From positions 1 through 50,092 of IMG/VR virus record IMGVR_UViG_3300033149_005642: a stretch of 50,092 bases of DNA; one strand, 5' to 3'. This DNA is from a virus. Taxonomy: Duplodnaviria > Caudoviricetes. Below, piece after piece: positions 4,189 through 42,115 of this stretch; the first letter of the stretch is position 1; each line of letters opens with the position of its first letter. Both the position numbers and the translations under genes were made by a program. The notes beneath the pieces are model-generated. The model saw nothing but the letters and a program-made list of their open reading frames with translations, had not been told where the DNA came from and did no database searches.

Positions 4189-6000
4189 GTGATGAGTCTG
4201 GAACGGGAAGTTCTGGAGTACCTGCCCAGGGATTATGGGGAGTTGACGAAGGACGGGAAGCGGAAGGCCCGCCTCGCCATTCTTCATACTCAGGCTACGC
4301 CCGATGATTACGTGCGCGCCTGGAAGTTCTTCAGGTACGTTTACCTCCTTCAATCGGGCATCTTCTATAAGCGCTTCGTTCCGTCTCCCGCCTACCACGA
4401 ACAAGGAATCAGGGATTTCGCTACGTATCACCTCAACATCTTCGTGGCTCCTCGCGGAGGCGCGAAGTCCACCGTTTTCCTGGAGGAGAACTCGCTGCTC
4501 CTTCTGCTGACCCATCCGCGTATCGTCATCGTGGCAGTTACGTCCACGTTGTCGTTGGTGGAGGAGCGCTTCGATCACCTGATGATCCAGTTGACCGAGA
4601 ATGACTTCATCCTGCACGACTTCGGGAAGCTGCGACCTCCACGGGGTGGGGGCATGTGGAGCCGGAGAAACCTGCGGTTGACGAACCAGGCCCGGATAGT
4701 GGGATTCCCGGTGGAAGGACGGAAGCGGGGAGCGCGTCCCGACGTGGTGTTGTTGGATGACCCGGAGTACGATCCGAAGAATGAGATGTCGGGGACGCGG
4801 CTCCGGGAAGAGTTCGAGGGCATGATGTTCCGGCAGATATTCCCGATGATCGGGACGAGAGGACGACTCTTCTGGAACGGGACATTCATCAGCCGGGCTT
4901 CTTACATTTACCATGCGGCTACGACTCAGGATGACAAGCGGTTCCTGCACTGGAACCGCCGTATCATCCCGGCGGCGGAGGAGCAGGATGACGGAACGTA
5001 CAAGTTGGCGTGGCCGGAATATTGGTCGAGGAAGGACTTGCTGAAGTTGCGGGCGCAAATGGGATACGGGGCCTATGCCGCCGAGATGTTGAACAGGCCG
5101 GTGTCCGACAAGGAGCGGATACTGCGACTCGATCCCGAACTGGATACTTATGCAGTGGATGGGGAGTGGCAGCGTGATCCCTACAACTCGCAGGCTGTCC
5201 TCCATTACGTGGAGACGGATATACGGACGGGAGAGTCTACGCCGGTATCCAGACCGTTCGGGGAGTTCATGCGGAGCCTCTACGTATTGTTTGCGGTGGA
5301 CTACGCGCCGACGGTGGGTCAGTTCTCCGATTTCTCCGTAATTCACGTCATGGGGTTCGACCATCATGATACGTTGTGGTCGCTGGACCTCTGGCAGGGA
5401 AAGGTGTATACGGCGGAACTCATCGCCCGCATCTTCAAGATGGGAGAAATATGGAGGCCGAAGGTGGTGGGGATAGAGGCTGTGGCCGTCCAATACGAGA
5501 TATACGAAAGGGTGAAGGCCGAGTTGCCTCTCTCGATGACGGGGTGGAGTCCCCGTATCCTCCCCGTCCGATATCCTCCTAACGTCTCGAAGGCCGACCG
5601 GTGCGCTTCCCTCCAGTGGCGCTTCAATTGCCATCGCATCAAATATCCGCGAGGCCGCACGGATACTCCCAATTCTGCGTATGCGGCCCTGTTCGCCCAG
5701 ACCGAGAACTTCACGATGGATATGGCGTTGCTGGCCCACGATGACTGCCTGGATACGGTGGCGATGGTACCATATATAGCCAGGGGGAGAGGGAAGAGGC
5801 CGGATGGGCGGGGAGATAGGAAGCCTTCGTTGATGAAGAGGACAAAGGGGGGGTTCAGGCGGCTGGAGGCGATGAATGCCTCGGAACTGACCCCCGAACA
5901 GATACAGGAACTCCTTGACATGGAGGCGGAGGAGGAGTACACTCTCCATAGGGAAGGGGCCGTACCACCTCCCTTGTCGGAAACGACGGTAATGGAATGA
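4189..6000 (+). CDS. terL: Terminase large subunit
   Basis: Walker A APRGGAKST, RGARPDVVLLDDPE Walker B region, C-terminal nuclease VDYA...SDFS...HDDCLD; upstream of portal. Confidence 0.9.
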   Translation: MMSLEREVLEYLPRDYGELTKDGKRKARLAILHTQATPDDYVRAWKFFRYVYLLQSGIFYKRFVPSPAYHEQGIRDFATYHLNIFVAPRGGAKSTVFLEENSLLLLLTHPRIVIVAVTSTLSLVEERFDHLMIQLTENDFILHDFGKLRPPRGGGMWSRRNLRLTNQARIVGFPVEGRKRGARPDVVLLDDPEYDPKNEMSGTRLREEFEGMMFRQIFPMIGTRGRLFWNGTFISRASYIYHAATTQDDKRFLHWNRRIIPAAEEQDDGTYKLAWPEYWSRKDLLKLRAQMGYGAYAAEMLNRPVSDKERILRLDPELDTYAVDGEWQRDPYNSQAVLHYVETDIRTGESTPVSRPFGEFMRSLYVLFAVDYAPTVGQFSDFSVIHVMGFDHHDTLWSLDLWQGKVYTAELIARIFKMGEIWRPKVVGIEAVAVQYEIYERVKAELPLSMTGWSPRILPVRYPPNVSKADRCASLQWRFNCHRIKYPRGRTDTPNSAYAALFAQTENFTMDMALLAHDDCLDTVAMVPYIARGRGKRPDGRGDRKPSLMKRTKGGFRRLEAMNASELTPEQIQELLDMEAEEEYTLHREGAVPPPLSETTVME

Positions 6001-6051
6001 ATTCATCGGTGATGGAATAAATTCATCGGTGATGGAATAAATTCATCGGTG
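5992..6051. repeat. Intergenic tandem 20-bp repeat ATGGAATAAATTCATCGGTG x3 (imperfectly palindromic)
   Basis: Directly visible between terL and the next gene. Confidence 0.9.
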
Positions 6052-9505: not shown

Positions 9506-11011
9506 GTGGCTGCGAATACAAGCACTACGGCTGCAGCCCTGGCCGATCTGGTCAAGGAAGAGTTGCCTCCGGGAATCCGGGAGACCCTACCCGAACTCGA
9601 CCCGGTTTTCACGGAGGTGATTCAAACTTCGCAGGAGGTGGTCCGAGACCTCATTGGCTCGGAATGGAAGATCAGGTACAACCTGGAGACGAGCCTCGCT
9701 GGCGGCGTGAAGTGGGTGTCGCCCGGCGGAGGCACGGTGAACCTCGGTTCGGTCGCCGAGCCTCTCAGGCAGTCTCTGGTGTGGGGAACGCAGCAATCAT
9801 TCCCGACCGCTGCGGAGTCCCCCGCCGTCGGCAACATCCGTCTCACGCTCTCGATGGCGAAACTCTTCGGCAACTTCTACCTGCCGGAGGATGTCTTCGC
9901 GTCCGATGAACTTTCCAGTTCGGTCGTCCGGGAAGTCGTTCGGAACATCAAGGGCGTGGCGAAGCGGGTGGCCCAGCAGAACATCGTCTGGTTCTACCTG
10001 CCTTCCACCGGCGAGCTGTGTACCGTCAGCGGTATCAGTTCGTACAGCGGCAAAGCCGAAATCACGTTCACGCCGGATAACGGGAGAATCCGGTGGTTCT
10101 ACAACGGTATGGTGGTGGACGTTTACAATCAGGACTTCACCACCAACCGCACGTCGGACTTCGCCGTCGTCGTGGACAACGTGGACTACCTGAACAAGAC
10201 GGTCCGGCTCGTTCGTCCCGACGGCACGGCCTTCCCTGCCGGGTTCGTGAATGGGGACAAGGTCGTGGCGAAGGATTGTTACAGCAGCGGGAAACTCGGC
10301 CCTTACGGTCTGGATGACTGGACTAAGAGTTCGGGTGCTCTGTTCGACGCAAGCAGCGGAGTGAACGTGAGCAACTACTCTCAGTTCAAGTCTCTCGTTT
10401 CGGACATTTCGGCCTCTCTGACCGAGTCCACCCTCGCGGAGAAGATGGGCCAGTTCGTGGACGCCTACGGGCTGTACCTCGACACGGTCATCACTACGCG
10501 GGGTGTGACCCAGGGCTTCATGGAGCAACCGACGTTCGGAAAGGGAGAGTTCATCTTCAACCGGCAGGGTGCTCCCCTGAACTTCGTGGGCGGCTGGTCG
10601 AAGGTCGGTTTCGTGTACGACGGGCGGAACTACCAGTGGTTGATTTCGCCCTACATGCGCGAAGAGACCCTCTACGTCGTCAAGCTCGGCGGCAAGAACC
10701 TGAAGCGTTACGTTCCCCCGAACGTTCCGCAGATGGGTTCCCGCGCGGACTTCGGCGGCGAGATTCGGTTCCTTGCCGGTCTCGGAGGCGGATCGGGCAT
10801 CTTCAAGCTCGCTCACACCTCCGCAGGTGCGACTCAGCCGATGGTGGAAGCCCCCTTCATCTCCAGATGCCAGATGGCCCCGGAGATCGTCATGGGGATC
10901 AAACTCACCAGCATCACCGAGTCACCGGCAATCGCCACGACAACCACCACGACAACCAGTACGTCTACGAGCACGACTTCGACGACCACGACTTCCACTA
11001 CGACTCCGTAA
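9506..11011 (+). CDS. Major capsid protein with C-terminal Thr/Ser-rich tail
   Basis: 501 aa, follows scaffold, GGAGG RBS and GTG start, followed by a strong terminator; last 24 residues are almost all T/S. Confidence 0.8.
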   Translation: MAANTSTTAAALADLVKEELPPGIRETLPELDPVFTEVIQTSQEVVRDLIGSEWKIRYNLETSLAGGVKWVSPGGGTVNLGSVAEPLRQSLVWGTQQSFPTAAESPAVGNIRLTLSMAKLFGNFYLPEDVFASDELSSSVVREVVRNIKGVAKRVAQQNIVWFYLPSTGELCTVSGISSYSGKAEITFTPDNGRIRWFYNGMVVDVYNQDFTTNRTSDFAVVVDNVDYLNKTVRLVRPDGTAFPAGFVNGDKVVAKDCYSSGKLGPYGLDDWTKSSGALFDASSGVNVSNYSQFKSLVSDISASLTESTLAEKMGQFVDAYGLYLDTVITTRGVTQGFMEQPTFGKGEFIFNRQGAPLNFVGGWSKVGFVYDGRNYQWLISPYMREETLYVVKLGGKNLKRYVPPNVPQMGSRADFGGEIRFLAGLGGGSGIFKLAHTSAGATQPMVEAPFISRCQMAPEIVMGIKLTSITESPAIATTTTTTTSTSTSTTSTTTTSTTTP

Positions 11012-11527: not shown

Positions 11528-12904
11528 ATGGCGAGTCTCGTCTTCCCGTCCGATCGGCAAACCCCGGAAGACCGCTATCGTTATCTCTATGCCTGCGTCG
11601 AGAAGCTGCGCCTGGAGCATAACAAGTACGCGGGGATAACGACGCCGAAGGCGGAGAGACGTCGCCGCCGTTGTCACGAACTCCAGCACGTCATCTTTCG
11701 TGAGATTCACCGGTTGCGGGCCAAGGTCCAGACGGAGACGTGGAACCCCGCCGACGAAGAACCTCCCCGCTTTATGCGATTGAAGGATGAGGGACTTTCC
11801 CGACACACTGAGGCCGACCCCGAAGCCTTGACCGGGATGTCCCTCGCCGATGAACCCGAATCCCGAACCCTCGATCCTACGGAAGACTTCACGACCTACA
11901 CCGAGGTGGACCCGAACAGTCACCTATCCAGAACATCGAGCGTCATCACGGCCAGTCACCTGAACTGCAACGAAGACGCCTATATCTATGATGATAAGGG
12001 TGCCGGTCACTTCGGAAGCACTTTCACGCACTATTACAAAGTCAACTGGATCGACTCATCCCAGTATAGAGATTGTGCCCTCTGGGCGGTCAGTAACGTA
12101 GTCGATGACGCGAAGAGCTGGCTCGATAACTATAGCGAAGCTGTCTTCCACTATACTTACAGCTATTATACCGGCCATCCTCGCATGTACATTGAAGATG
12201 CAGAAACGAGGACGCTGAGTAGTTACAGGCAATTCCACGACGAAGCGAACCCGGTCTATTATACTGTGGAGCGCACGGATGCCTTCACTATATATCTTCG
12301 GGCATACAGCGACGCCGCCCGCACCAACGAACTGACCGGTTCCCCCCTCAGCATCTCGTTGCAGGGCACTTCTTATCGTTATGTTTTCGGGGTCTGTTCT
12401 TGGAACGATGGTGACTCCGCCGACTTGAATTTTACGATGGAGGACCTCGATCTGAACGAGGGCGGAGGAACAACTACTACCTCGACTACGTCCACCACCT
12501 CGACTACATCTACTACGACATCTACCACTACCACGACTACTCCGGCTCCCACCACCACGACTACTACGTCTACGACTACCACCACCACGTCGTCTACTAC
12601 TTCTACGACCACCACTTCTACAACCACGTCTACTACCACCACGCCACCGCCTACGACTACTACCACGACAAGTTCTACGACGAGTTCGACTACAACCACT
12701 TCGACGACTACGGTGCCTCCCACTACGACTACGACGGCGGCTCCGACGAGCAGCACGAGTTCCACGAGTACGTCTTCGACGACGAGCACGACTACTACCA
12801 CTTCCACCACGACGCCGTATACTCCGGGGGAGGTGGTGCGTGCCAAGTGGGATCGGACGTTGGCGAACGGACAGGTACTATTGACGGGAGGTGTGGTGGG
12901 ATGA
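11528..12904 (+). CDS. Putative virion protein: aromatic beta-rich domain plus ~115-aa mucin-like Thr/Ser/Pro tract
   Basis: T/S/P tract at about 12470-12826; structural operon position. Confidence 0.75.
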   Translation: MASLVFPSDRQTPEDRYRYLYACVEKLRLEHNKYAGITTPKAERRRRRCHELQHVIFREIHRLRAKVQTETWNPADEEPPRFMRLKDEGLSRHTEADPEALTGMSLADEPESRTLDPTEDFTTYTEVDPNSHLSRTSSVITASHLNCNEDAYIYDDKGAGHFGSTFTHYYKVNWIDSSQYRDCALWAVSNVVDDAKSWLDNYSEAVFHYTYSYYTGHPRMYIEDAETRTLSSYRQFHDEANPVYYTVERTDAFTIYLRAYSDAARTNELTGSPLSISLQGTSYRYVFGVCSWNDGDSADLNFTMEDLDLNEGGGTTTTSTTSTTSTTSTTTSTTTTTTPAPTTTTTTSTTTTTTSSTTSTTTTSTTTSTTTTPPPTTTTTTSSTTSSTTTTSTTTVPPTTTTTAAPTSSTSSTSTSSTTSTTTTTSTTTPYTPGEVVRAKWDRTLANGQVLLTGGVVG

Positions 12905-14163
12905 GATATCTCAACGATTACGGACGGGGTGCCACCGTGCGGTTCCGGTGGAGCACCAACGATACGAACGGAGCCTCCGTCACCCGGAGTACCGACGGGG
13001 CCATCCGAGTATACAAGGACGGCGGCACGTCGTATTCCACTACCGGGATCACCGATACGGAGGACTTCAACGGTCTGGCGGGAGTCCACCTCTGCGAGAT
13101 AGATTTGACCGCCGACAGCTTCTACCAGCCGGGTCACGATTACGACGTGGTATTGGCGGGGGCGGTCATCGACGGGCAGACCGTGAACGCGGTCATCGCC
13201 AGCTTCTCGGTGGAGAACCGTTATCCCTTCGCTACGGCGACCTCTTCCTCCACCAGCTCCGGCGGCGTGGCGGGCCTCACGGACGGGTTCCTCTACAAGG
13301 GTATCATGCTGCTCCGTGAACTTCTGGACGAACCCGACGTGAACGCAAAGTACACGGATGCCCGCCTCATCGAGTATCTGGAGTCCGCTTACGGAGACGT
13401 GCTCGGCGAATACAACCGAAACTGTCCCGCGCCGCTCCTCTGCTACTACGACGTGACGCTGGCAAATACCACTTCCCGTCAATGGTATGCCTTACCGCCC
13501 TCCGTGGTCGGCATGATTCGGATGATAGAACTCCTGGATTCCAACGATAACGTTGTGGGGCGGCTTCGAGACAGGCCCATGTTGTCGGCTTCCGGGCAAG
13601 GATGGCGGTTGGAGGGCCACAACTTGTTCGTGGAAGAGGACCGGTTCACCACGGGCTACAAAATGAGGATATACTATATCCCGACGGGGACCGCCCGTCT
13701 TCACGAGGGGACCGCTGCGGCCCTTACCGCCTCCACCATCACGCTCGCGTCGTCTCCCTCGCGTGGGACCCTCGACATGACGCCCAATGCCTACGGGGGT
13801 TCCGTAGTCCGCATCCTCGGAGCCGACACCAATTACGTGATGCAGGAGCGGATTATTACGGATTACGATGCGCAGACCAGGGTGGCAACCGTGCGACCCG
13901 ACTTCGATCCCGTCCCTTCCGGTACCGTCAACTACGAGATAGGTCCCATTCTCGGTGCCATCTTCCAGAAACCGATGATCTGGCGGGCCGCCTCGGCCAT
14001 CGCCGCGATGGAATGGGGTATGGGCGCGAAATATAAGGCCCTCGTGGCGGAAGAACAGCGGCTTCTTCGTACTCTCCGTCTGAACGCCGCCAACACCAAC
14101 ATCTTCAACGGTATCGCTTTCCGACGGGATACGGTGCTGGCCGAGACGGACGACAACGGATGA
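12901..14163 (+). CDS. Putative head-tail adaptor / virion structural protein
   Basis: ATGA overlap with previous gene; LRELLDEPD...YTDARLIEYL...YALP adaptor-like segment. Confidence 0.6.
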   Translation: MRYLNDYGRGATVRFRWSTNDTNGASVTRSTDGAIRVYKDGGTSYSTTGITDTEDFNGLAGVHLCEIDLTADSFYQPGHDYDVVLAGAVIDGQTVNAVIASFSVENRYPFATATSSSTSSGGVAGLTDGFLYKGIMLLRELLDEPDVNAKYTDARLIEYLESAYGDVLGEYNRNCPAPLLCYYDVTLANTTSRQWYALPPSVVGMIRMIELLDSNDNVVGRLRDRPMLSASGQGWRLEGHNLFVEEDRFTTGYKMRIYYIPTGTARLHEGTAAALTASTITLASSPSRGTLDMTPNAYGGSVVRILGADTNYVMQERIITDYDAQTRVATVRPDFDPVPSGTVNYEIGPILGAIFQKPMIWRAASAIAAMEWGMGAKYKALVAEEQRLLRTLRLNAANTNIFNGIAFRRDTVLAETDDNG

Positions 14164-14176
14164 CGGGGGACGGGGC

Positions 14177-14638
14177 ATGTACGTATATCCTTCGATAGGC
14201 GTCCGGGACTCCTTCGCCAGCCTGGTACCGGCAAAACCCCGTCCCCCGTCGATCTCAGGGGGAAAGATTCGATTGGCGGGGGAAGACCGGCGGTCGGAAG
14301 AGGAGATGCTTCAGGCGGCGCTGGAAGACCAAGTGAAGTCCCTTTTTTATAAGCCGCCCCGGTGGGATAATGTCCAGTCGTACCTTTCCGATCCTGTGTT
14401 GCCGGATTTCCGGAGTCCCAGGCCCGTCGGAGCCAACCGTTATCTCACCCTGCTCACCAGCATCGTGAAGCAGGGCAGCAATTATATCGTGGGGAAGAAC
14501 ATCTTCAAGATCACGAAGGGACTCATTCAATATATCGGTTCGACCACGTCCACGCTCGCGGCTCCTACGACTACTACCAGTAGCAGTACGTCGAGCACGA
14601 CCACTTCCACGACTACTACGACCACCACGACCTCGTGA
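14177..14638 (+). CDS. Putative virion protein with C-terminal Thr/Ser tract
   Basis: C-terminal ~32 aa nearly all T/S (14540-14635). Confidence 0.7.
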   Translation: MYVYPSIGVRDSFASLVPAKPRPPSISGGKIRLAGEDRRSEEEMLQAALEDQVKSLFYKPPRWDNVQSYLSDPVLPDFRSPRPVGANRYLTLLTSIVKQGSNYIVGKNIFKITKGLIQYIGSTTSTLAAPTTTTSSSTSSTTTSTTTTTTTTS

Positions 14639-14649
14639 GGTAAGGCGAG

Positions 14650-15501
14650 ATGTATGTGCAGCCGCCGTTGGAGGCGGAGCAGTTGCCGGGTGCTCTTCCT
14701 CCCACGTTCCGGAAGACGTTCCTGGAGGGAGGCTACGTGCGTCTTGTAGATTGGGGAGGTCGTCAAACCAAACTCGAACATTTTCTCACTGCTTCCTCCT
14801 ACGATTTCGACAGCGACGATCCCCAGGGACTTCTCAACCGTTTCCTCGACTATCTGCGCCGCGCCTCCGCCGGATGGTCGATCATCTGGGACATCGTTCG
14901 GGATGACGACGGCCTCCATCCGGCCATCGGTCCCATCTTCACCGGCCCCGGCGGTCTTGACGTACCCCCTAATGTTCCCGGCGGCGTAGGTACCACCACC
15001 GCCACGACCACCGCAACCACTACCGCAACGACTACGCCGACGACCACTGCAACCACGACTGCAACCACTACGCCTACCACCACTTCTTCTTCGTCGTCGT
15101 CATCGTCATCGTCTTCAACCACCTCTTCTTCTTCTTCAACCACTACTACATCTTCATCGACGACGACCACTGCAACCACCACGCCGACGACTACTGCGAC
15201 AACTACCACAACTACTTCCCCGACGACTACAACAACCACGGTTGCGTGGGGTCCGTGCTGCTACGAGTGTGTCTGCGTTGGAGCTGGATACGGGACAACT
15301 ACGAGCGACTGTGTAGAAGGTCCGGGCGATTGCACTAATCAGCCTCCAGACACTTACTGTTACTATAATGAGACGGAGATCACATGTTGGGCGGTTACGC
15401 CCGGAGAGAATCTGCACGGGTGTCATTACTGGCCCCCGAACTGTGATGAAGAATCTCATGGGTGCGTCGTTTACGAATATTCGTCGGAGACATGTGAATG
15501 A
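14650..15501 (+). CDS. Putative virion protein: Thr/Ser-rich stalk plus Cys-rich C-terminal domain
   Basis: ~83-aa T/S/A/P tract (14992-15240) followed by ~85 aa with about 12 Cys. Confidence 0.75.
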   Translation: MYVQPPLEAEQLPGALPPTFRKTFLEGGYVRLVDWGGRQTKLEHFLTASSYDFDSDDPQGLLNRFLDYLRRASAGWSIIWDIVRDDDGLHPAIGPIFTGPGGLDVPPNVPGGVGTTTATTTATTTATTTPTTTATTTATTTPTTTSSSSSSSSSSSTTSSSSSTTTTSSSTTTTATTTPTTTATTTTTTSPTTTTTTVAWGPCCYECVCVGAGYGTTTSDCVEGPGDCTNQPPDTYCYYNETEITCWAVTPGENLHGCHYWPPNCDEESHGCVVYEYSSETCE

Positions 15502-16070
15502 TTGACTGCAAGTTCGCCGATCCGAAACTCCAGACTGAGCCGCTTCCGGTCGGTTCGGTTTGTCCGCGCTGCAACGGAAAGAATCCTGAGTGCGCGCTGT
15601 GTGGCGGTACGGGAAAGACGAAGGTTGAAGTACCGGGCCGCGTAAAATGCTGGAAGCTCACGAATGAGGCCGGGTTCGTGTGCTCGGTCACCACGAGTCA
15701 TTGCCGGGTTTGTGACGCGCGAGTCCCGATGGGAGTGTCGGGGTCCGGCGTCTCCGTCCGGGATTCTACGGTCCTTCTGCCGCTACTCAAGGGTTGTCTC
15801 AAGGCCCGCTTGATAGCCGGTGACTGTCCGAGGTATCAGGCGGCGAATCCGGTGGATGTCGTCGCGGCGGCATCGAAATTCAGGATGTTGTCGAACGCTT
15901 CGGAACGTGCCGATTTGTTCTCGCGTGCATTCTGGAAACAGACGCGACTGACCGAGAAGAACGGCGGCCATCCCCCCGAAGTTCTCGCCGAGAAATTGGG
16001 AGCGTTGGCGACCGCATTGAGCACTACGGAAACGTTACAGGAAATCGTCGATGCGTACACGGCTGATTGA
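15498..16070 (+). CDS. Cys-rich hypothetical protein (CxxCxGxG zinc-binding-like)
   Basis: CPRCNG...CALCGGTG; ATGA overlap. Confidence 0.65.
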   Translation: MIDCKFADPKLQTEPLPVGSVCPRCNGKNPECALCGGTGKTKVEVPGRVKCWKLTNEAGFVCSVTTSHCRVCDARVPMGVSGSGVSVRDSTVLLPLLKGCLKARLIAGDCPRYQAANPVDVVAAASKFRMLSNASERADLFSRAFWKQTRLTEKNGGHPPEVLAEKLGALATALSTTETLQEIVDAYTAD

Positions 16071-16380
16071 GATCATCAAAGTATGCCGCAGCGAGGGTGA
16101 TGCGTTGCGCGAACGAAGACGGGCGCGTTGTGTGGGAGGTGACGACCTGGAACGTTGTCCGAACTATTACGTCAGGACCGATGGCCGACCGGGCTGCAAG
16201 GCTTGTCACTGCGGCGATCCGCTCACAAGGCCGCGTTGCCCCATCGGACGCTGGGGAATAACCCCTCTCTCAAGATGCAGATATCTGTCGGTAGTCCCTT
16301 CTGTCCCCGGCGGTTATCGTTGCATCCTTGGGCACCGGGATTGTTTCCGTTGTACGGACCGGCAGATGGCCGAGGAATGA
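16051..16380 (+). CDS. Cys-rich small protein
   Basis: CKACHC...CPIGRW motif, about 11 Cys. Confidence 0.55.
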   Translation: MRTRLIEIIKVCRSEGDALRERRRARCVGGDDLERCPNYYVRTDGRPGCKACHCGDPLTRPRCPIGRWGITPLSRCRYLSVVPSVPGGYRCILGHRDCFRCTDRQMAEE

Positions 16381-16781: not shown

Positions 16782-16798
16782 CGGAAAAGGGAGCCGAC

Positions 16799-19288
16799 AT
16801 GCCTCCACCCGAACAGTTCCAGAGCCTGCCGTTGGACCCCAACGTGGGTCGTAAGACTTCCGTCTCCATCATCATCGCCGCCTGCGGAGAGGGGGAAGAG
16901 GTGATAGAGACCGTCAAGTCGGCGAGGGGGCTGGCCGGAGAGGTGGGTTCACTGGAAATAGTGGTCGTGGACGACACAAGGAACGGGACGGTCTGTCGGA
17001 GGTTGCCGGGGGGCGTGAAGCTCATTGAACATCGAGAGCAGCAGGGGGCCGGTCGCTCGAAGAACGAAGGGGCGGGCTTGGCGACGGGGGAGGTGTTGAT
17101 CTTCCCTGATGCCCACATGAGGTTCCCGCCCCATACGTTCCGAGACCTGGCGTCGGCGTGTGTACAATACAGGGGGATAGCCTGTTGCGGCGTTCAGCAT
17201 CGGGACAAGGCAAGAGGTTGTCAGGGGTGGGGGGCGTGGTTCCGGTTCCATCGGCGGGGACGACTGGGGGTGCAGTATAATCGGTTCGAGCCGGGACCGG
17301 GCCAGGCCATCGCGGTGGACATGCCGTTCGGGGGAACATACGCATTCCATCGGAGCGCCTTCAGGGCCATAGGGGGCTGGACCGACTCGGCGGCGAGATG
17401 GGGCTACTGTGAACAGCCTCTGGGCGTGGCTGCCTGGATGCTGGACATGAAAGTGCTGGCGGTGCATCCCATCGTGAAACACCTTTTCAGGAAAGTCAAT
17501 CCGTCAGGTGCGACGGCTGACGACGTATGGATGAACGTGGCCTTCTCCCACTACATCTTTTTCAGTCCCGAAACCAACCGGCACTACTGGACCCCGATTC
17601 TTCGGACCCACCTGGGAGCCCGTCTGAACGAAGTCCTGGGGATGCCCGAATTGGCGAGGCGACGAGCGAACTTCAAGCGATTGCCTGCGAAGAAAGATGA
17701 GGATTTCTTCCGGGAAAAGTTGGGGGTGACGCCGATAGGGGACGGGAAAGGTAATGTAAGGGGTGTGCGCGTCTGCTCGGTGATACTGCCCGCGTACAAC
17801 GAAGGGAAGGAAGTTCTTCTGACGGTGAGGAGCGTTGGACAGGCGACTCGATCGGATGCTGAGATCATTATTGTCGATGATGCATCCACCGACGGTTCGT
17901 GCGATCGGATCGACGCGGCCACGGGCAAGAAACGGTTCCCTGACATCGTGAGAATCTTGAGGAACAAGCAACGTTTCGGGGTCTGCCGCTCCCGGCTGAT
18001 CGGGATAGGAAGGGCGTCGGAGGACGTTCTGATCTTCATGGATGCTCACTCGCGGTGCTCGCCCTTAGCCGTGGACAAGTTGATGGCGGCGGCGTGGGAG
18101 TCGAAGGGTTTCGTGACGGGGGCCATTACGGGGTTGGGTGAAGATAAACCCCATTACGGGGGAAGGTTCTGCGTCAAGCCGGGATGGGGTCTCCGATTGG
18201 CGTACTGGAAAAGGAAACCGGAGAAGGTGCTGAACCGCATCACCGGTCCTATCGGCTCGTGTTACGCGGTGAGGCGGGACGTGTTGAAGCGGTTGAGAAG
18301 TTGGCCTCCTCTGCCGGGGAAGTGGGCGTACTCGGAACAAGCCATCGGGCTAAAGGCATATAACCTGGGCATCCCCATCTTCAATCTGGCCGATATTCTC
18401 ATCCAGCACAAGATGAAGAAAGGGACGATAGACGTTCCGCTGCTGGACGTATTGCTCAACGCTCACTTCATCCATCGGGCTTACTTCGACGAGGACACGT
18501 ACACTGACATCTGGAGACCGATCCTGTTGGAACGCGGTTACGACCCGGCGATAGATGAGCTCCTGAAATCAAAACTGTTGCGGGACGAGATCGAGTGGTT
18601 CCAGGCGAACCGGAGGCGTACCGACGAGGAGTTCTTCAGGCACGTGTTGGCCGCGGAGCCGGAAGACCTGCTCGACCTCGATCTGCGTAAAGGACGAGCG
18701 AAGCCCCGCACCCAGGCTTCTTATATCGCCTATGAATCGCGTCGATCTCCCGGACGGGAATGGCTGGCCGACCGTCCCCGCATGGAGAGGCATCTGAAAG
18801 ATTTACTCGAAATGTTGAGGCCGCCCTACACACGATACGTCCATCTCGACCTGGGCAGCCGGGACGGTTGGATTCTGGACAGGATGGTAGGGTTGGGATT
18901 CAAGAAGGGGCGCGTTCATGGAATGGAACTCGTGCCGTGGACGGCGAAACACGCCCGTAGAATGGGACGTGACGTGGACACGGGAGACATCCACGACCTT
19001 GGGCGATGGAAAGACGGAATCTTCAACCTCCTCACAATCATTCATGCGTTGGAGCACTGTCATACGCCGACGAAAGTTCTATCGGAAGCACAAAGGGTCT
19101 TGAGGCCGGGCGGCCTCCTGATGGTCGTCGTTCCGTTGGAACCGAAGAAGCTATCCGTGAAGGGAGACCACTGCTACGCCATGCGGAACGAGGAGGCGGT
19201 AAAGAAGCTCGTGGCAAAGTGCGGTTTCGAGATATTGAAGACGAAACGCTTCCATGACGAATTGACGCTGTTCGGGAGGCGCAAGTAG
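16799..19288 (+). CDS. Fusion of two GT-A glycosyltransferase domains (polypeptide GalNAc-transferase-like) and a class I SAM methyltransferase
   Basis: Domain 1: VVVDD, FPDAH, WGYCE, HLFRK. Domain 2: SVILPAYNE, IIIVDDASTDGS, FMDAH, WAYSE. C-terminus: LDLGSRDG, HALEH, RVLRPGG. Confidence 0.88.
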   Translation: MPPPEQFQSLPLDPNVGRKTSVSIIIAACGEGEEVIETVKSARGLAGEVGSLEIVVVDDTRNGTVCRRLPGGVKLIEHREQQGAGRSKNEGAGLATGEVLIFPDAHMRFPPHTFRDLASACVQYRGIACCGVQHRDKARGCQGWGAWFRFHRRGRLGVQYNRFEPGPGQAIAVDMPFGGTYAFHRSAFRAIGGWTDSAARWGYCEQPLGVAAWMLDMKVLAVHPIVKHLFRKVNPSGATADDVWMNVAFSHYIFFSPETNRHYWTPILRTHLGARLNEVLGMPELARRRANFKRLPAKKDEDFFREKLGVTPIGDGKGNVRGVRVCSVILPAYNEGKEVLLTVRSVGQATRSDAEIIIVDDASTDGSCDRIDAATGKKRFPDIVRILRNKQRFGVCRSRLIGIGRASEDVLIFMDAHSRCSPLAVDKLMAAAWESKGFVTGAITGLGEDKPHYGGRFCVKPGWGLRLAYWKRKPEKVLNRITGPIGSCYAVRRDVLKRLRSWPPLPGKWAYSEQAIGLKAYNLGIPIFNLADILIQHKMKKGTIDVPLLDVLLNAHFIHRAYFDEDTYTDIWRPILLERGYDPAIDELLKSKLLRDEIEWFQANRRRTDEEFFRHVLAAEPEDLLDLDLRKGRAKPRTQASYIAYESRRSPGREWLADRPRMERHLKDLLEMLRPPYTRYVHLDLGSRDGWILDRMVGLGFKKGRVHGMELVPWTAKHARRMGRDVDTGDIHDLGRWKDGIFNLLTIIHALEHCHTPTKVLSEAQRVLRPGGLLMVVVPLEPKKLSVKGDHCYAMRNEEAVKKLVAKCGFEILKTKRFHDELTLFGRRK

Positions 19289-20242
19289 ATGAAGCTCTCC
19301 GTCATCATCCCCACGTACAACGAGGGCAAGTTTCTGAGGAGCTCTCTCAAGAACCTCCTCGCCCATCTCCCCGAAGACTCCGAGATCGTGGTGGTGGTGG
19401 ACGAGGTGGGCGATATGGCGAAGGAAACCCTCGCCTCCCTCCGACTTCTCAAACGGGTGGCAACCGTTCACCTCGGAGAGCGGATGGGAGTCGCCCGCTC
19501 CCGGAACTTCGGAGTAGCCGCTTCCCAAGGCGACGTGTTGTGTTTCTGTGACGCTCACGTGTGGGTCAAGCGCGGTCACTTGCGGATTCTCATGGAAGAC
19601 GTACTCAACGGAGAGGACGCTTTCTATGCTCCCGCCTTTTCGCATATCCGAATCCACAAGCGCGTCGGCACCGGCAGGCGGCCTCTCCCCATCAACTACG
19701 GGAACGGTCTCGTCTACGCCCACAAGCGCGGGTGGTTCTACCTCTGTGTAGACCGGGTGAATGACGAGATTTTGAAAGAACGCACCGCCGCCAACGCTGC
19801 AGGCATCACTCTTAGCCGCCGCCTCTTTGAGCGGATCGGAGGATGGGTCCACACCCCCGGCTTCTGGGGTTCCAATGATGCGGCCATCGCCATCAAGGCT
19901 TTTCTTCTCGGCATTCCCATCCGATCCGACCCCCGCGTCTGGATGCTTCACGGTATCAAGTCCACCATCAGCCACCAGATTCCCCGTGGCCACGAGACTC
20001 TCAATCGTTTCTACGTCGCCCGTACCCTCTTCTCCGATCGAACCTACGAAACTTTCTGGCGTCCTCTCCTTACTGAACGCTATCCCTGGACCGACGAGGA
20101 AGATAAACAGCTCTATACCCGGCAAGCCGAGATGGAACATCAGGATTTCCGTCGTAAGGTCAAGCGCACCGACGAAGAGTTTCTGGAACGGTTCGTGTAT
20201 CCCCGAATTCAGCAATGGGAGGCGAAACATGGAGGATCATAG
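19289..20242 (+). CDS. GT-A glycosyltransferase (GT2/ppGalNAc-T-like)
   Basis: SVIIPTYNE, GVARSRNFG, FCDAH, FERIGGW, FWGSND. Confidence 0.88.
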   Translation: MKLSVIIPTYNEGKFLRSSLKNLLAHLPEDSEIVVVVDEVGDMAKETLASLRLLKRVATVHLGERMGVARSRNFGVAASQGDVLCFCDAHVWVKRGHLRILMEDVLNGEDAFYAPAFSHIRIHKRVGTGRRPLPINYGNGLVYAHKRGWFYLCVDRVNDEILKERTAANAAGITLSRRLFERIGGWVHTPGFWGSNDAAIAIKAFLLGIPIRSDPRVWMLHGIKSTISHQIPRGHETLNRFYVARTLFSDRTYETFWRPLLTERYPWTDEEDKQLYTRQAEMEHQDFRRKVKRTDEEFLERFVYPRIQQWEAKHGGS

Positions 20243-20567
20243 GCTGCTGCTGTGTGATTGCGCCCGTCCGGGACCGATGACGGGGTACTGCGGAGTATGG
20301 GACGCCCGCCACAAACGAATCTCTCTTATTCTGTGGGCGGTCGAAGGCAACAACACGCGGGTGATTTCCCTGGACGGCGGTATCAAGGGATGTCCCGTGT
20401 GCCTCAAGCCTTACGATCGAAACAACTCAGCCGGACGCGATGCCATCCCCGATCCCGCCCTCAAACACCTGGACCGCGATGTTTCAACCCCGTCCCCCGT
20501 CAATCCGTCGGAACAAGAAGCTGATTCCCCTTCGTTCGACTTCGTGGACGCAGCCGAGGAGAGATGA
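20229..20567 (+). CDS. Hypothetical protein (CDC...CPVC)
   Basis: GGAGG RBS, ATG at 20229, overlaps GT stop. Confidence 0.55.
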   Translation: MEDHRLLLCDCARPGPMTGYCGVWDARHKRISLILWAVEGNNTRVISLDGGIKGCPVCLKPYDRNNSAGRDAIPDPALKHLDRDVSTPSPVNPSEQEADSPSFDFVDAAEER

Positions 20568-20568
20568 A

Positions 20569-20844
20569 ATGGATGTCTGCCGGGAGCACGCGACCCTCGT
20601 ATCGAAGTTGGAAGAGCTGCTGGTAGCTCAAACCCGCAACACGGAACGCCTCAAGGCCACACAGGCGACGGTCAGTGACATCAAGATCGCCGTCGATCGG
20701 CTGGAAAGAAACAGCTATCGACGCAACGGAGTCATGCAGGTGCTCTCGGCGAAGCTCGCATGGATCGTCGGAATCGCGGTGTTCGCAGGAACCGTCATTC
20801 TGGACATCGTGATCCGGTACCTCTTTCCACTAGGAGGAAGATAA
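20569..20844 (+). CDS. Coiled-coil protein with C-terminal TM helix (holin/XhlA-like)
   Basis: Heptad-like N-terminus, WIVGIAVFAGTVILDIVI TM; GAGGAG RBS. Confidence 0.6.
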   Translation: MDVCREHATLVSKLEELLVAQTRNTERLKATQATVSDIKIAVDRLERNSYRRNGVMQVLSAKLAWIVGIAVFAGTVILDIVIRYLFPLGGR

Positions 20845-20846
20845 AG

Positions 20847-21407
20847 ATGAGTGGTTCAACGGCTTGGACTCTCATAATCGTGGCACTGGCGGTTCTCGCC
20901 GTCGGTTGCCAGACCGTGAAGGACGCTTTGCTGCCCGAAGGCCAGGTCGTGGAAGTAACGGACGTGGACGGGGATGGGGCGCCCGACAGCGTGACGAACC
21001 TCGTGACGGGAGAGGTGACTCCCATCCCCGACCTGGAGAACCCGGCGGAACTCCGAATCGTCCTGGAAAAGTTACTTGAAAAGCAGAAAAGAGCGGCTTT
21101 CGATGCCTTGAAGCAAACCGAATGGGGACGCCAACTCCAGAGCCTTGCGGCGAACGCGGCGGCCCTCCTCAGTGCAGCCGTCGGCATCTATTATGGTTTA
21201 CGGAAACGCAAACAAGCCCGAACTACCGCCGTGCAACTTGGAGATGAACAGCGCGTTACACGAGTCATCGTGAACGCTCTCGACCGAGTCCGCAAATCCT
21301 CACCCACCGTGGCCGAGGAGTTCAAAACCGCAATGACCGAAACCATCAAGGCCACGGGGACCGACGAAACCCTCGTGCGCACCGTGGTGGCGAAGCACAA
21401 AGGCTAA
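20847..21407 (+). CDS. Lipoprotein with second internal TM segment (possible spanin)
   Basis: Signal peptide ending LAVG-C lipobox; DVDGDG motif; hydrophobic AALLSAAVGIYYGL followed by RKRK. Confidence 0.6.
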   Translation: MSGSTAWTLIIVALAVLAVGCQTVKDALLPEGQVVEVTDVDGDGAPDSVTNLVTGEVTPIPDLENPAELRIVLEKLLEKQKRAAFDALKQTEWGRQLQSLAANAAALLSAAVGIYYGLRKRKQARTTAVQLGDEQRVTRVIVNALDRVRKSSPTVAEEFKTAMTETIKATGTDETLVRTVVAKHKG

Positions 21408-21517: not shown

Positions 21518-24082
21518 ATGGTGCGGCATCCTGACGAAGGAATGGTGAGGCAGTCGGTTTCGATACCGATGGCCTTCCCCAATATGGATGCGGGTATGTT
21601 TCCCACCCGGATTCCAGAAGGGACGTTGGTGGAGGCGATTGGGGTAGACGGAAGGTTCCTGGGTTCGCTGAGGAACTTTCCCGGATTTGAGAGGGTGCGG
21701 AACTTGACGTATGGGGGCAGTCCCATCTCGAACGTATCGTTCTTCGAGGTCGTGGATGCACCGCAACCTTCGTACTTGTCGGGAAACTATCGGATTCGTG
21801 GGTTCATCGTGCGGCATGACGTGGGATCGGTCACAACGACTTCCTCGACAAGTAGCTCCACTACGTCTACGTCCAGTTCGTCTACCACCACGACGACCAG
21901 CACTTCGACTACGACCCCGACGACTTCTACGTCCAGCAGTACGACGAGTACGAGCACCTCGACCACGACGACGAGTACGAGCACGTCCACGAGTTCGACG
22001 ACTACCAGCACGGCTCCGCCCACGACGACTACGACGGCTACCTGCACTACTACGTCCACAAGTTCTTCGACGACCAGTACGTCTACCAGTACGAGTACGT
22101 CTACTAGTACTACGACGACCACTACGACCACGACGGAATGGACGGGGACGACGCAGCAATTGACGTTCTTCCGGTACATGGAGAGTACGAGACAATGGGA
22201 TGAGTTGTTGATCTGGAGTACGGTAAGCTCAACTTGCCGGATAGGCGTGGCGGTATTCGGCAGCATGATTATCGTGACGGCGGACGATGCGGCGGGACAT
22301 GCATCCATCTTCCAGAGCAACGCTTCCAGTGTCTCGCGGTTCTCCGCGTCGGAATGGGCGGAGGAGGGACCGGCTTTTGAACATTCATCCAGCGGGGATG
22401 CGGATACGGGCGGGTATTTGTCGTATGGGCGGTATTTGATGGCCTATCGATACGTGAATGATACGGCGGGCGGTCCGAACTCCAAGAGCGCGCTTTCGGA
22501 GCTGTACGTTCACGAGGTGACCGATACGGATGCCAGGAATCATCTGGTGGGGATAAAGAGGCCAGCGGCGGCGACGGTGCCTTCCGGGGCGACGAAGGTG
22601 GAACTGTTCAGGTCCGTCTCGGTGGACGTGGCGGGGACGGTATACGAGGGCGGGGTACTGTATAAGGAGAAGGAAATCAGTACCTCGGTGTGGAATACGT
22701 GGACTACCCATCAGATGGGGACCTTGCCGGACGAGGTGCTGGTACAACAGGCAAGGTATGACCCATTGGTGGATGCGGTAGGAACGGCTCCCCGCACTGC
22801 GACCATTCATACGTACCAGGGAATAGTGTTCATGGAGGGAGAGAACGGGGAGAGCCTGGTATGGTCGAACGTGAGGGCGTTGCAGCCTGAAAACTTCAAT
22901 GCGCTCAACAGTTACCCGTGTCCGAGGGGGACGGGGAGACTCCTGCGTATCATGCAGGCGGAAGACGATATCTACGTGCTGGGCGAGCAGGCCATTCTTC
23001 GGGTGATGCTGGCGGGGAGTCGGGTGCTCATCAAGAAGGTACACTCGACGTTGGGATTGGCGTACTATCGGGCGGTAGAGGCGGTGGGGGCGGACCTCAT
23101 CTTCCTGTCCACGAAGGGACTGGCGATATTGAATGGAACGACTGGACAGGCCCTGGGAGTGGCCGCCGCGTCCCGGGTCGTGGACCTCAAGAAGTGGACC
23201 TCGTCGGACGTGTACGTGGTCACGGACTCGCGGCTGGGAGCCACGTTCGTCGTGGGGGGTGATTATCCGGGGATCACGGTCGATGAGGAGACGGGGGACG
23301 GGGCTATCGTGTTGTGGCACGATAACAAGGTGATGACGATGCTGGTGGGGATGAGCGTGTTTGCGGCGGCGGCGACCGGGCCTCATCCCGTGGACGGCGG
23401 CGGTGATCGGGCGATATTCATTACGTCGGACGGTATTGTAGTCGTTCCCAGCTTGGACCTGGATATCGGGCCGACGATGCTGGGTGTGCTGGGGACGGTG
23501 AACGGGACGACGACGGCGGGCGGTGATACTTATCTGGAGGACTCGACGGCTGCATTCTCGGAAACGGCGGTGGGGTCGAGGGTGTATCTCGTGGACGTGG
23601 ATGGAGCGGAATATACGGTCAGGAAGATTGTGAGCTTCGTAAATTCCACGAAGTTGAAGCTGGCGGACCTGGACGGAAACGACGTGACAGTGAGCGCCGG
23701 AACAGTGTATACGATATCACCGGTACCGTTCCGGGTGACGCCGAGGCCGTTCGGGGGGGACTTCGAGCGGGTGACGTTGAGGAGCCTCGCAGTGCATCCG
23801 ACGTGGACCGATGCGGATACGACGACGGGATACTTTCGGTTGTCGGCGCTGACGGGGAAGGGAGGGCGGAGGTTGTTGCCGGACGTAGGGGACGATGGCG
23901 AGGAGAGGGCGATGGTGGCGATGTCGTCCTTGCCTGAGAGGACCTCCAAGGACCTGCTGATAGGGGGACCGAGGGTGACGGTGCAAGTCGAGGCGGTGTC
24001 GGCGGGAGCGAGATTTGAGTTGACAGGGGCCGAAGCAAGTATTACACTTAGAGTGAGCAAGCGTTCTGCGGGGATATCGTGA
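21518..24082 (+). CDS. Putative tail nozzle/stabilization-type virion protein with ~100-aa mucin-like Thr/Ser insert
   Basis: 854 aa beta-rich (propeller-like, LVWS...PENF); T/S tract 21833-22135; precedes ejection-type proteins. Confidence 0.65.
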   Translation: MVRHPDEGMVRQSVSIPMAFPNMDAGMFPTRIPEGTLVEAIGVDGRFLGSLRNFPGFERVRNLTYGGSPISNVSFFEVVDAPQPSYLSGNYRIRGFIVRHDVGSVTTTSSTSSSTTSTSSSSTTTTTSTSTTTPTTSTSSSTTSTSTSTTTTSTSTSTSSTTTSTAPPTTTTTATCTTTSTSSSTTSTSTSTSTSTSTTTTTTTTTEWTGTTQQLTFFRYMESTRQWDELLIWSTVSSTCRIGVAVFGSMIIVTADDAAGHASIFQSNASSVSRFSASEWAEEGPAFEHSSSGDADTGGYLSYGRYLMAYRYVNDTAGGPNSKSALSELYVHEVTDTDARNHLVGIKRPAAATVPSGATKVELFRSVSVDVAGTVYEGGVLYKEKEISTSVWNTWTTHQMGTLPDEVLVQQARYDPLVDAVGTAPRTATIHTYQGIVFMEGENGESLVWSNVRALQPENFNALNSYPCPRGTGRLLRIMQAEDDIYVLGEQAILRVMLAGSRVLIKKVHSTLGLAYYRAVEAVGADLIFLSTKGLAILNGTTGQALGVAAASRVVDLKKWTSSDVYVVTDSRLGATFVVGGDYPGITVDEETGDGAIVLWHDNKVMTMLVGMSVFAAAATGPHPVDGGGDRAIFITSDGIVVVPSLDLDIGPTMLGVLGTVNGTTTAGGDTYLEDSTAAFSETAVGSRVYLVDVDGAEYTVRKIVSFVNSTKLKLADLDGNDVTVSAGTVYTISPVPFRVTPRPFGGDFERVTLRSLAVHPTWTDADTTTGYFRLSALTGKGGRRLLPDVGDDGEERAMVAMSSLPERTSKDLLIGGPRVTVQVEAVSAGARFELTGAEASITLRVSKRSAGIS

Positions 24083-38112: not shown

Positions 38113-38742
38113 TCATATTACCATGAGATGGGTTGTGGGGGGATGGACGGCCACGTGCCACACGCAATGCATGTACGCGATGGAGTCCGTCTTCCCGTCG
38201 GGCGTAAAGGATAGGCGGGAAGAGTGGACGAAGGCGTAAAGGGGCATGTGGGCTTTCCAGAAAGGAAGACGTTTACGGGACTCGAAGAAGTTGAGACGGA
38301 GGAGCATGACGACCCAAGCCTCGCTTTCCTGGAGGGCTTTCTCGATGAAGTCCTGGGCAAGGGCAAAGGGAGGATTCGTGATGATGAGGTTATAGAGGAG
38401 ATGGGAAGGAGGTTCCCAAGTAAGGTAATCGGCGATAACGTCGGCGCGGGAATCGGTCCGTATATCGACGGTAGTGAGGGGAGGAGCATATCCTTCTCTC
38501 AGGGTGTACCGGTGGATGGCGTCAGGATAGGCCATAGAAGCGTCGGAGGAGCCTCCCGCAGCGGGGTCGAGGATGGGACCGTAAAGGAGGGCTTGTTTGA
38601 AAGAGGGACCGGGGGGTGTGGGGAGGACGGTTTTGTGTTCTTCGAGGTCGAGGATGGCCTTTAGAAAGTCGAGGATGGCGGAAACGGGGGTTACGTAATA
38701 GTCGCTGACGTGACGTTGACCGCCTCGTTTAGTGCTGCTCAT
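38113..38742 (-). CDS. DNA amino-methyltransferase (N6-A/N4-C)
   Basis: DYYVTP, ILDPAAG (motif I), IITNPPF (motif IV), MLLRLNF. Confidence 0.85.
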   Translation of the reverse strand: MSSTKRGGQRHVSDYYVTPVSAILDFLKAILDLEEHKTVLPTPPGPSFKQALLYGPILDPAAGGSSDASMAYPDAIHRYTLREGYAPPLTTVDIRTDSRADVIADYLTWEPPSHLLYNLIITNPPFALAQDFIEKALQESEAWVVMLLRLNFFESRKRLPFWKAHMPLYAFVHSSRLSFTPDGKTDSIAYMHCVWHVAVHPPTTHLMVI

Positions 38743-41503: not shown

Positions 41504-41563
41504 GGCAGTGCTCCACCGAAGAACGGAACGGATTGTTGGGAGTTCTGTGTCCCGTCCCCCGTC

Positions 41564-41592
41564 AGTATAGCGGATGGAAGGGGACGTGTCAA
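41564..41592 (-). promoter_or_regulatory. Near-consensus sigma70 promoter for the DNA polymerase operon
   Basis: TTGACA-17 bp-TATACT on the - strand, with an A/T-rich tract upstream. Confidence 0.85.
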
Positions 41593-41848
41593 GCGAAAAA
41601 AGATAAAATAAGGTAAAATTTTTTTTGGGAAGAGCGAGTGGAAATTTCAATGTAGGGGGGCCTCTCCCCCATGCCTTGATGAACGTCGAGATGGGCTCGT
41701 CGTAACTCTTTGCGGTGCAAGAGGTTATGACTTGCTTCCTCTTTATTGATCGCGCGCGCGCGACCTGGTATGCTGGCGGTGTCGGCGCGCGTCGCGTCGA
41801 GGGAAGGGTAGGTGGGGGTGGTATGGGGTGGTATAGGACGGGAAGGAG

Positions 41849-42115
41849 GTGATGGATGTTGGCACGGTGATAGAGGAGGTGGAGGCGTTCCTGGATGGTA
41901 GGGAGGCCCACCGGGAAGGCCTACGTTCCACCGGTCGGGAGCTATGGAGGGGCCCCACCCTCGTGGCCCGGTGGAACAGAGGGGCAGTCGAGGTCCTTTC
42001 CCCTGTAAGGGGGGAGTCCCCCCAGGTGAGGAAGGACAGGGTGGTGCTGGTGCGGGCGATCGCACTGGCAATGAGGAGAAGACAACATGGACACCATACA
42101 GGTGACGGTCATTGA
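41849..42115 (+). CDS. Hypothetical protein, first gene of the G-rich accessory arm
   Basis: AGGAGGT RBS. Confidence 0.6.
   Translation: MMDVGTVIEEVEAFLDGREAHREGLRSTGRELWRGPTLVARWNRGAVEVLSPVRGESPQVRKDRVVLVRAIALAMRRRQHGHHTGDGH

Follow-up and report, generated by a model that had tools for sequence, protein, structure and literature searches.

The window analysed here is the whole of the IMG/VR virus record IMGVR_UViG_3300033149_005642, a stretch of 50,092 nucleotides from a virus of the Caudoviricetes. At positions 16799–20242 on its plus strand, two abutting genes encode three glycosyltransferase (GT) domains of the GT-A type and one methyltransferase domain. The available data support a close likeness of all three GT-A domains to the polypeptide N-acetylgalactosaminyltransferases (GALNTs or ppGalNAc-Ts, family GT27) rather than to ordinary GT2 enzymes. 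Viewed together with the Ser/Thr-rich tracts encoded on either side of the two genes and with the recurrence of such tracts beside related enzymes in other phages, this suggests, at a probability that we put near 70%, a portable three-paralogue cassette whose enzymes O-glycosylate and methylate mucin-like tracts of virion proteins encoded by the same phage. A sugar coat that the phage puts on its particle is the probable result.

Domain architecture and likeness to GALNTs

The gene pair contains the following features, with short motifs given as translated.

16799–19288, plus strand: gene for an 829-residue fusion of GT-A domain 1, GT-A domain 2 and an S-adenosylmethionine (SAM) methyltransferase (from the open reading frame (ORF), its translation and Pfam)
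16856–17755, plus strand: GT-A domain 1; FPDAH, WGYCE, VKHLFRK and KKDEDFF (family hidden Markov model (HMM), E 7e-85, positions 3–298)
17771–18685, plus strand: GT-A domain 2; FMDAH, WAYSE, IQHKMKK and RTDEEFF (family HMM, E 1e-98)
18782–19237, plus strand: class I SAM-dependent methyltransferase domain (Methyltransf_11, E 7e-12; Methyltransf_23, E 5e-11)
19289–20242, plus strand: GT3 gene, 317 residues, a single GT-A domain; FCDAH, WGSND, H221 (in MLHGIK) and RTDEEFL

For the 829-residue protein, Pfam returns Glycos_transf_2 (PF00535) twice together with Methyltransf_11/23/25. The methyltransferase, which occupies residues ∼662–813, was overlooked by an earlier note on this DNA. The fusion gene starts at an ATG (16799) five bases downstream of a Shine-Dalgarno sequence, AAGGGAG (16787–16793), with the preceding ORF ending at 16781, and the ATG of GT3 (19289) directly abuts the TAG stop of the fusion gene (19286–19288). 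Neither GT protein contains a membrane or hydrophobic segment (maximum KD19 hydropathy of the 829-residue fusion, 1.49) and Pfam finds no ricin lectin domain in them, as the earlier note had stated. The strings quoted in that note are all present in the plus-strand translation, namely the three DxH motifs FPDAH, FMDAH and FCDAH, the domain 2 series SVILPAYNE..LLTVRSV..EIIIVDDAS..RILRNKQRFGVCRSRLIG..LIFMDAH and the domain 1 series GGTYAFHRSAFRAIGGW..WGYCE..VKHLFRK. A C-terminal R/K-x-DE(E/D)F helix is likewise found in each domain (KKDEDFF, RTDEEFF and RTDEEFL), and the view that the domains are paralogous is borne out by their alignment with each other, which runs end to end over the full length at 20–31% identity.

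PF00535 was matched above its gathering score (E 8.5e-42 and 1.5e-21). Because the PF00535 model also covers the catalytic domains of GALNTs, this match does not discriminate between GT2 enzymes and GALNTs. When the domains were searched one at a time against PDB sequences, GALNTs accounted for all eight matches of domain 1, for the top 12 distinct sequences with domain 2 and for the top five with GT3. A family profile was built from 26 single-domain sequences (306 positions; residue numbers follow GT3), and its top 14 distinct PDB sequences were again GALNTs, with E values of 4e-33 to 2e-27 and alignments reaching from position 3 to 252 or 294 of 306. The next match was E. coli K4 chondroitin polymerase (K4CP, E 1.3e-26), and ordinary GT2 enzymes reached E 1e-19 at best, mostly over the first 100–120 positions. 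As controls, two ordinary GT2 proteins were searched in the same way and matched no GALNT (26 and 4 matches, respectively).

The predicted structure gave the same picture. The AlphaFold model of GT3 has a predicted local distance difference test (pLDDT) score of 93.5 and a predicted template modelling (pTM) score of 0.92. In a Foldseek search with this model, ranks 1–50 among the matches listed were all GALNTs, with template modelling (TM) scores of 0.69–0.77 over ∼320 columns. Consistently, a second aligner that is independent of Foldseek yielded Z 27.6 for GalNAc-T1, with 298 of 317 residues aligned, and Z 26.4 for T. gondii GalNAc-T3 (TgGalNAc-T3); GT2 enzymes including K4CP followed below a gap, at Z no higher than 19.4 with 187–247 residues aligned. 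The best viral structure in BFVD reached a query-based TM score of 0.66, lower than the GALNTs (0.70–0.77). D88, H90 and H221 align with the DxH and GHV/IFRK motifs of GALNTs. Since the alignment to GALNT12 spans the terminal helix, the counterpart of the DE(E/D)F helix in GALNT12 is its C-K-D-F-K-W-F-L stretch. The superposition on GalNAc-T1, which the earlier note had named as a check, thus agrees with the likeness that it claimed, and the grouping with polysaccharide or lipopolysaccharide (LPS) GT2 enzymes that would have spoken against it came out negative by both sequence and structure. Among solved structures, GALNTs match best whether the query is a single domain, the family profile or the GT3 model, which supports the assignment of the three domains as GALNT-like and not ordinary GT2, at an identity to GALNTs of only 17–20%. 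Ordinary GT2 enzymes (SpsA, TarS/TarP, GtrB, ArnC and DPMS) share with the phage domains the PF00535 match and the N-terminal nucleotide-binding half, but they align mostly over ∼100–120 residues (Z 14–19) and typically carry a DxD metal motif, which is replaced by DxH in all three phage domains and across their family.

In the 26-member alignment, E32, D88, H90, W186, H221 and F248 are invariant. As D88, H90 and H221 are found in all 26 sequences, DxH is a trait of the family and not a chance feature. When 1.84 billion representatives were searched exhaustively with the profile, 1,011 proteins came out at E ≤1e-30, of which the best 150 comprised family members and multi-GT2 proteins only, with no GALNT. 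From these 150, 68 proteins covering at least ∼250 profile positions were picked; a regular expression detected DxH in 64 of them, and two of the four misses read D-A-H once aligned. A family-profile search for longer proteins returned 30 sequences, none of them a GALNT. Tandem two-domain forms are common among the homologues, and the GT-GT-methyltransferase fusion recurs in P0005. Sugar methylation is pointed to by P0006 and P0009, which carry an additional, second methyltransferase resembling rhamnosyl O-methyltransferases. A ricin lectin domain was found in none of the 10 multi-domain homologues scanned. One family member of 1,122 residues (P0010) has a radical SAM domain fused at its N-terminus (PF04055, E 1e-6), a hint that some cassettes may tailor sugars or peptides further.

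Among deposited phages, tblastn found only two short unannotated records (E 1e-6). Viral contigs scanned with GT3, P0005 or P0006 as single queries gave no match. For cellular genomes, one genome per species was covered by a scan limited to a pattern; a full-length family member was found in none of its 39 loci, which is weak evidence of absence.

The relationship among the three paralogues was examined in a maximum-likelihood tree of 25 domains. Domain 1, domain 2 and GT3 of the window each group with their counterparts from three loci of other phages (L005, L006 and L048), with clade support of 92/91, 87/79 and 100/99, respectively. The presence of three separate orthologous clades indicates that the paralogues diverged before the cassette spread and that each has been retained; judged from the sequences, such retention would fit three different steps better than redundancy. 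These three loci and a fourth (L052) share with the window only the GT and methyltransferase genes (at E 1e-6).

Departures from GALNTs and classification

The alignment of the phage domains with the GALNT GT-A domain begins at the first strand and extends to the final helix ahead of the lectin linker (profile positions 3–294 of 306), and both have a metal site composed of DxH and a distal histidine. The probable acceptors of the phage enzymes, Ser/Thr-rich and Pro-punctuated tracts, are a further likeness. The phage domains differ from GALNTs in having neither a ricin-type lectin domain nor a type II membrane anchor, in being fused in tandem with a methyltransferase, and in their setting, which is the cytoplasm in the phage system and not the Golgi.

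A further departure lies in the Gal/GalNAc-T motif, which ppGalNAc-Ts conserve as DxxxxxWGGENLE (PMC3825155). The earlier note had read a WGxE-type motif in the phage domains. Its tryptophan and usually its glycine are indeed kept (W in 24 of the 26 sequences, G in most), but the motif is really W-G-x-x-[E/D]: the position of the GALNT glutamate is taken by N, S, C, T or Q, and an invariant D or E (26 of 26) lies one residue later, where HMMER places it opposite the asparagine of WGGEN. The upstream aspartate of the GALNT motif is absent from the phage domains.

A study of the GT-A tree by Taujale et al. in 2020 (PMC7185993) describes the DxD-to-DxH replacement as confined to GT27 and GT60, both of which are families of polypeptide Ser/Thr glycosyltransferases. 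In the same study, the retaining GT27 and GT60 share clade 5 with GT7 and GT2-CHS, which are inverting, the C-terminal histidine is a metal ligand in GT27, and the aspartate of the xED motif, variable among retaining GT-A enzymes, serves the inverting ones as their base (PMC7185993). For mouse GALNT1, Asp209, His211 and His344 have been named for the metal site (PMC4202792). From its sequence, the phage family appears to combine the metal site of GT27/GT60 with an acid where the xED-Asp would lie, an arrangement with which inverting and retaining chemistry would both be compatible. We take the displaced acid to be equivalent to the xED-Asp from ungapped alignments and by comparison with beta-4-GalT1.

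An acid at the xED-Asp position is shared by K4CP (GT2-CHS/GT7, clade 5), the next-best match at Z 19.4. K4CP differs in that 238 residues are aligned as against 298 and in that the acceptors are polysaccharides; GT2-CHS/GT7 enzymes carry DxD (PMC7185993). The GT60 protist polypeptide GlcNAc-transferases resemble the phage family in their DxH motif, their Ser/Thr or hydroxyproline acceptors and their grouping with GT27 (PMC7185993). No GT60 sequence or structure was among the matches, and GT60 may be no more distant from the phage family than GT27 is. Because the acid is displaced and the upstream aspartate, the lectin domain and the membrane anchor are absent, the family is not filed as GT27. 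It is the nearest relative of GT27 found and likely works like one. A more far-reaching view, which we regard as doubtful, would have the DxH family as a prokaryotic-virus sister of GT27/GT60 in clade 5, intermediate between the two mechanisms and accompanied on its travels by its mucin-like substrates; enzyme and Pro/Thr/Ser (PTS) tract would then constitute a 'mucin-type' phage glycosylation that may have predated or seeded the eukaryotic system.

Ser/Thr tracts and their co-occurrence with DxH enzymes

A six-frame scan for 25-residue stretches with at least 68–70% Ser+Thr found exactly five tracts in the window. They are 35–132 residues long, all lie in long plus-strand ORFs between 9.5 and 24.1 kb that flank the GT genes, and together they contain 331 Ser/Thr residues, punctuated by Pro and Ala.

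9506–11011, plus strand: 501-residue ORF, likely the major capsid protein; C-terminal Ser/Thr tail at nucleotides 10904–11008
11528–12904, plus strand: 458-residue ORF; 130-residue Thr/Ser/Pro tract at nucleotides 12449–12838
14177–14638, plus strand: 153-residue ORF; C-terminal Ser/Thr tail at nucleotides 14531–14635
14650–15501, plus strand: 283-residue ORF; 89-residue Thr/Ser/Ala/Pro tract at nucleotides 14986–15252, then a Cys-rich end
21518–24082, plus strand: 854-residue ORF, likely a tail protein; 120-residue Ser/Thr tract at nucleotides 21809–22168

The tracts use mixed codons and their DNA repeats are imperfect (61–82% matches), which argues for selection on composition and against recent slippage. 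The tail of ORF 9506–11011 is kept in homologues at 68–70% identity and is shorter in one at ∼50%; as four more distant homologues stop just ahead of it, the tail appears to be an appendage on a conserved core. This tail ends ..TTTP. Tails encoded at 4853–5479, 10329–10700 and 12118–12519 of a second IMG/VR record, G002 (L104), and at 13202–14182 of a third, G001 (L107), end ..T(T/S)AP. These endings may represent a terminal signal common to the tails, or a point at which the glycosylating enzymes stop.

Gene order and a match to an atlas cluster in which 15% carry SU10_MCP give a lead towards a capsid protein for ORF 9506–11011. Pfam matched none of nine homologues of this ORF at E up to 5, and a PDB profile search with it gave one chance match (E 5.9). 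ORF 21518–24082 structurally resembles an atlas cluster that is 99% viral and bears the automatic name 'Putative tail protein' (TM 0.67 over 663 residues), which gives a similar lead towards a tail protein.

Tracts accompany DxH enzymes in other phages as well. G002 (36 kb, 54% complete) has a two-domain gene, a single GT and six tract ORFs, several with C-terminal tails ending TAP. The cassette is also present in G001 (103 kb, 84% complete), together with seven tracts by locus-wide count, one of them in a 62-residue ORF. The LDLNEGGGTTTT lead-in of the tract in window ORF 11528–12904 recurs in one of the G001 ORFs. The association was quantified in 80 viral loci from one scan, most of which contain ordinary GT2 genes, with GT domains classed by the residues aligned to D88/H90. 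Six of nine loci with a DxH domain encode a tract in an ORF of at least 100 residues, as against three of 71 loci without one (Fisher's exact p 2.1e-5), and the tracts in these three are all ≤28 residues. In four loci (L113, L116, L117 and L178) the tract ORF lies 35–1,540 bases upstream of the GT ORF (35 to ∼420 in three of them), and in L114 the tract is within the same ORF as the GT. Non-DxH GT domains in the viral control loci mostly read DxD (77 of 86). As background, 39 genome loci (634 kb) contain 15 tracts and 46 metagenome loci (395 kb) contain one, none of them of at least 40 residues, and no tract occurs in 136 kb from five other viral loci, Che8 and Corndog among them.

More divergent DxH GT-A domains were observed at 9380–10981 of L114 and 9989–12235 of L178; they lack the C-terminal helical tail and HMM coverage stops near position 250. 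In one of the two, a Ser/Thr tract belongs to the same polypeptide, so that this enzyme may glycosylate itself.

A mechanism can be proposed from these features. The two late genes would be translationally coupled and yield two soluble cytoplasmic enzymes, the GT-GT-methyltransferase fusion and the single GT. Each GT-A domain would bind a nucleotide sugar via a metal held by the Asp and His of DxH and by the distal His, as in polypeptide GalNAc-transferases. Sugars would be added to hydroxyl groups in the Ser/Thr(/Pro/Ala) tracts of the five virion-region ORFs, which are long and presumably disordered; one paralogue would probably start the chain on the peptide and the other two would extend it, and the methyltransferase would O-methylate a sugar. 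The predicted outcome is a mucin-like glycan brush on the particle. We infer the order of steps, the sugars, the linkage and the benefit, which may be shielding, stability or adhesion.

Several points weigh against this proposal. The tracts are proposed as substrates from their co-occurrence with the enzymes, and the evidence that the tract proteins belong to the virion is weak: neither PHROGs nor Pfam gives a match, the atlas gives leads only, and the AlphaFold model of ORF 9506–11011, made from nine sequences, has pLDDT 41 and leaves the capsid fold unconfirmed. The Gal/GalNAc-T motif is inexact, so that donor and mechanism may, by sequence, differ from those of GALNTs. The tracts of G001 lie 20–45 kb from the cassette. 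In the sequence examined, three of the nine DxH loci (L111, L112 and L118) have no tract, and seven short family fragments (43 kb in total) are likewise without one. The loci are also not independent events; L110 is the same record as L005, and L175/L180 look duplicate. Lastly, PHROGs labels the N-terminal halves of the GT domains 'GtrB-like O-antigen conversion' (phrog_841, E 6.5e-11 and 2.4e-6).

This last label would suit enzymes that modify the host envelope (O-antigen, teichoic acid or capsule) against superinfection or re-adsorption, with the tracts as unrelated flexible linkers. Weak N-terminal NCBIfam matches to exopolysaccharide and teichuronic acid GT2 enzymes, and the common annotation of phage GT2 genes, lean the same way. 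However, the NCBIfam and PHROGs matches span ∼100 N-terminal residues, and the NCBIfam scores of ≤61 bits compare with curated cut-offs of 182–529, whereas the nearest relatives over the full length are protein O-glycosyltransferases. The absence of a membrane segment from the GTs, the location of their genes inside the virion-gene block and the co-occurrence with Ser/Thr tracts also speak against envelope modification, and neither a Gtr-type flippase nor an integrase turned up in Pfam scans of 30 other ORFs. We consider it unlikely.

The tract-free DxH loci (3 of 9) bear on a different possibility, in which host proteins, other phage proteins or small molecules are glycosylated in the course of host takeover, or a free oligosaccharide is built, and the tracts are modified, if at all, by host enzymes. 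GT-A enzymes are versatile and the acceptor cannot be read from sequence, which leaves room for such targets. But they would leave unexplained why the tract ORF lies 35–1,540 bases upstream of the GT ORF in four loci, why tract and GT share one ORF in a fifth, and why tracts are enriched at p 2e-5; moreover, virions assemble in the cytoplasm, where soluble GTs would meet them. Such targets are quite unlikely.

Genome setting and relation to glycosylated mycobacteriophages

Direct repeats lie at the ends of the window, whose 50,092 bases make up a complete phage genome; no tRNA was found in it. Its large terminase is listed below.

4189–5997: large terminase (phrog_38, E 8e-46)

The GT genes sit within a long plus-strand gene run downstream of the terminase. 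PHROGs and Pfam left nine of 10 virion-region ORFs without a match, the terminase alone being matched. A minus-strand replication block encodes a family A polymerase fused to a uracil-DNA glycosylase (UDG)-like domain, a PD-(D/E)XK nuclease and an AAA_24 ATPase. The fusion, at 38729–41911 on the minus strand, is a 1,059-residue protein with an N-terminal domain of the UDG superfamily (PF03167, E 2e-13) and a family A DNA polymerase domain (PF00476, E 8e-31). Terminase and polymerase are ≤31% identical to those of any deposited or cultured phage, and their matches span mixed hosts.

The fused polymerase, and the existence of virus-encoded DNA-hypermodifying glycosyltransferases as cited in PMC12619734, raise the question of whether the GTs might glycosylate modified bases in phage DNA and thereby evade restriction. 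This would call for a hydroxymethylase or another base-modifying enzyme, and none was found in the ORFs scanned by Pfam. The GT genes, moreover, lie in the virion block and not in the replication block, and their closest relatives act on polypeptides. DNA glycosylation is accordingly extremely improbable, and O-glycosylation of virion tracts is the reading retained here.

Other features of the genome were noted in passing. The first two ORFs after GT3 (20440–20844 and 20760–21407, plus strand) each encode a strongly hydrophobic segment (KD19 2.39 and 2.14), and the second has an N-terminal segment ending ..LAVGC, lipobox-like in appearance; located between the GT genes and the tail gene, these two ORFs may form a lysis cassette (holin- or spanin-like). 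Immediately upstream of the GT genes is a run of Cys-rich ORFs (14650–15501, 15498–16070 and 16051–16380, plus strand). The ORF after 14650–15501 carries CPRCNGKNPECALCGGTGK, similar to DnaJ-type CxxCxGxG zinc motifs, and no family match was found for the run (14650–16380) in Pfam or PHROGs. Near-perfect short tandem repeats (95–100% matches) occur outside the Ser/Thr tracts at 541–604 (12 bp × 5.2), 5987–6051 (20 bp × 3.2, at the end of the terminase gene) and 47306–47367 (18 bp × 3.4). Between 38000 and 46000 the GC skew is very strongly positive (0.38–0.46), and GC content rises to 0.62–0.65 over the minus-strand replication genes.

To our knowledge, mycobacteriophages are as yet the only phages whose particles have been shown to be glycosylated. 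Freeman et al. reportedly described mycobacteriophage virion glycosylation in 2023, with Che8 gp108–110 and Corndog gp35–38. The likeness to the present system lies in the concept of a phage that glycosylates its own particle, which is a proposal for the window, and in the presence of phage-encoded GTs with an O-methyltransferase; in the mycobacteriophages a GT2-like domain is either fused to a TylF-type methyltransferase, as in Che8 gp108, or adjacent to one. The Corndog glycosylation genes lie between the portal and protease genes. Mycobacteriophage glycans sit at the C-termini of capsid and tail-tube subunits (PMC12619734; PMC11256854). The enzymes of Che8 and Corndog differ from those of the window in being GT2-like, GT25-like, TylF-type and others, and score ≤8 bits against the family HMM. 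In Che8 and Corndog the C-termini of the capsid and tail proteins read ..GS or ..DS, and ∼104 kb of sequence from the two contains no tract. The concept and the GT-methyltransferase pairing are thus shared with mycobacteriophages, whereas the enzymes and the substrate design differ. In the literature no report was found of GALNT-like phage enzymes or of mucin-like phage tracts, supplements and subscription papers being outside the coverage.

Unlike in mycobacteriophages, the present enzymes belong to a different family, of the non-eukaryotic ones known the closest to the mucin-initiating GalNAc-transferases, and form a three-paralogue cassette that moves among otherwise unrelated uncultivated phages, and this cassette co-occurs with virion-region proteins bearing hundreds of potential O-glycosylation sites. 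If the proposed function is correct, phages would repeatedly make use of dense, mucin-like coats of glycan, with bearing on particle stability, adsorption, immune recognition and phage therapy. The enzymes would be soluble, lectin-free and bacterially expressible GALNT-like catalysts that come with natural tract substrates for glycoengineering. They would also provide an experimentally tractable outgroup for the origin of GT27 and GT60 and for the way in which this GT-A clade switched between inverting and retaining chemistry.

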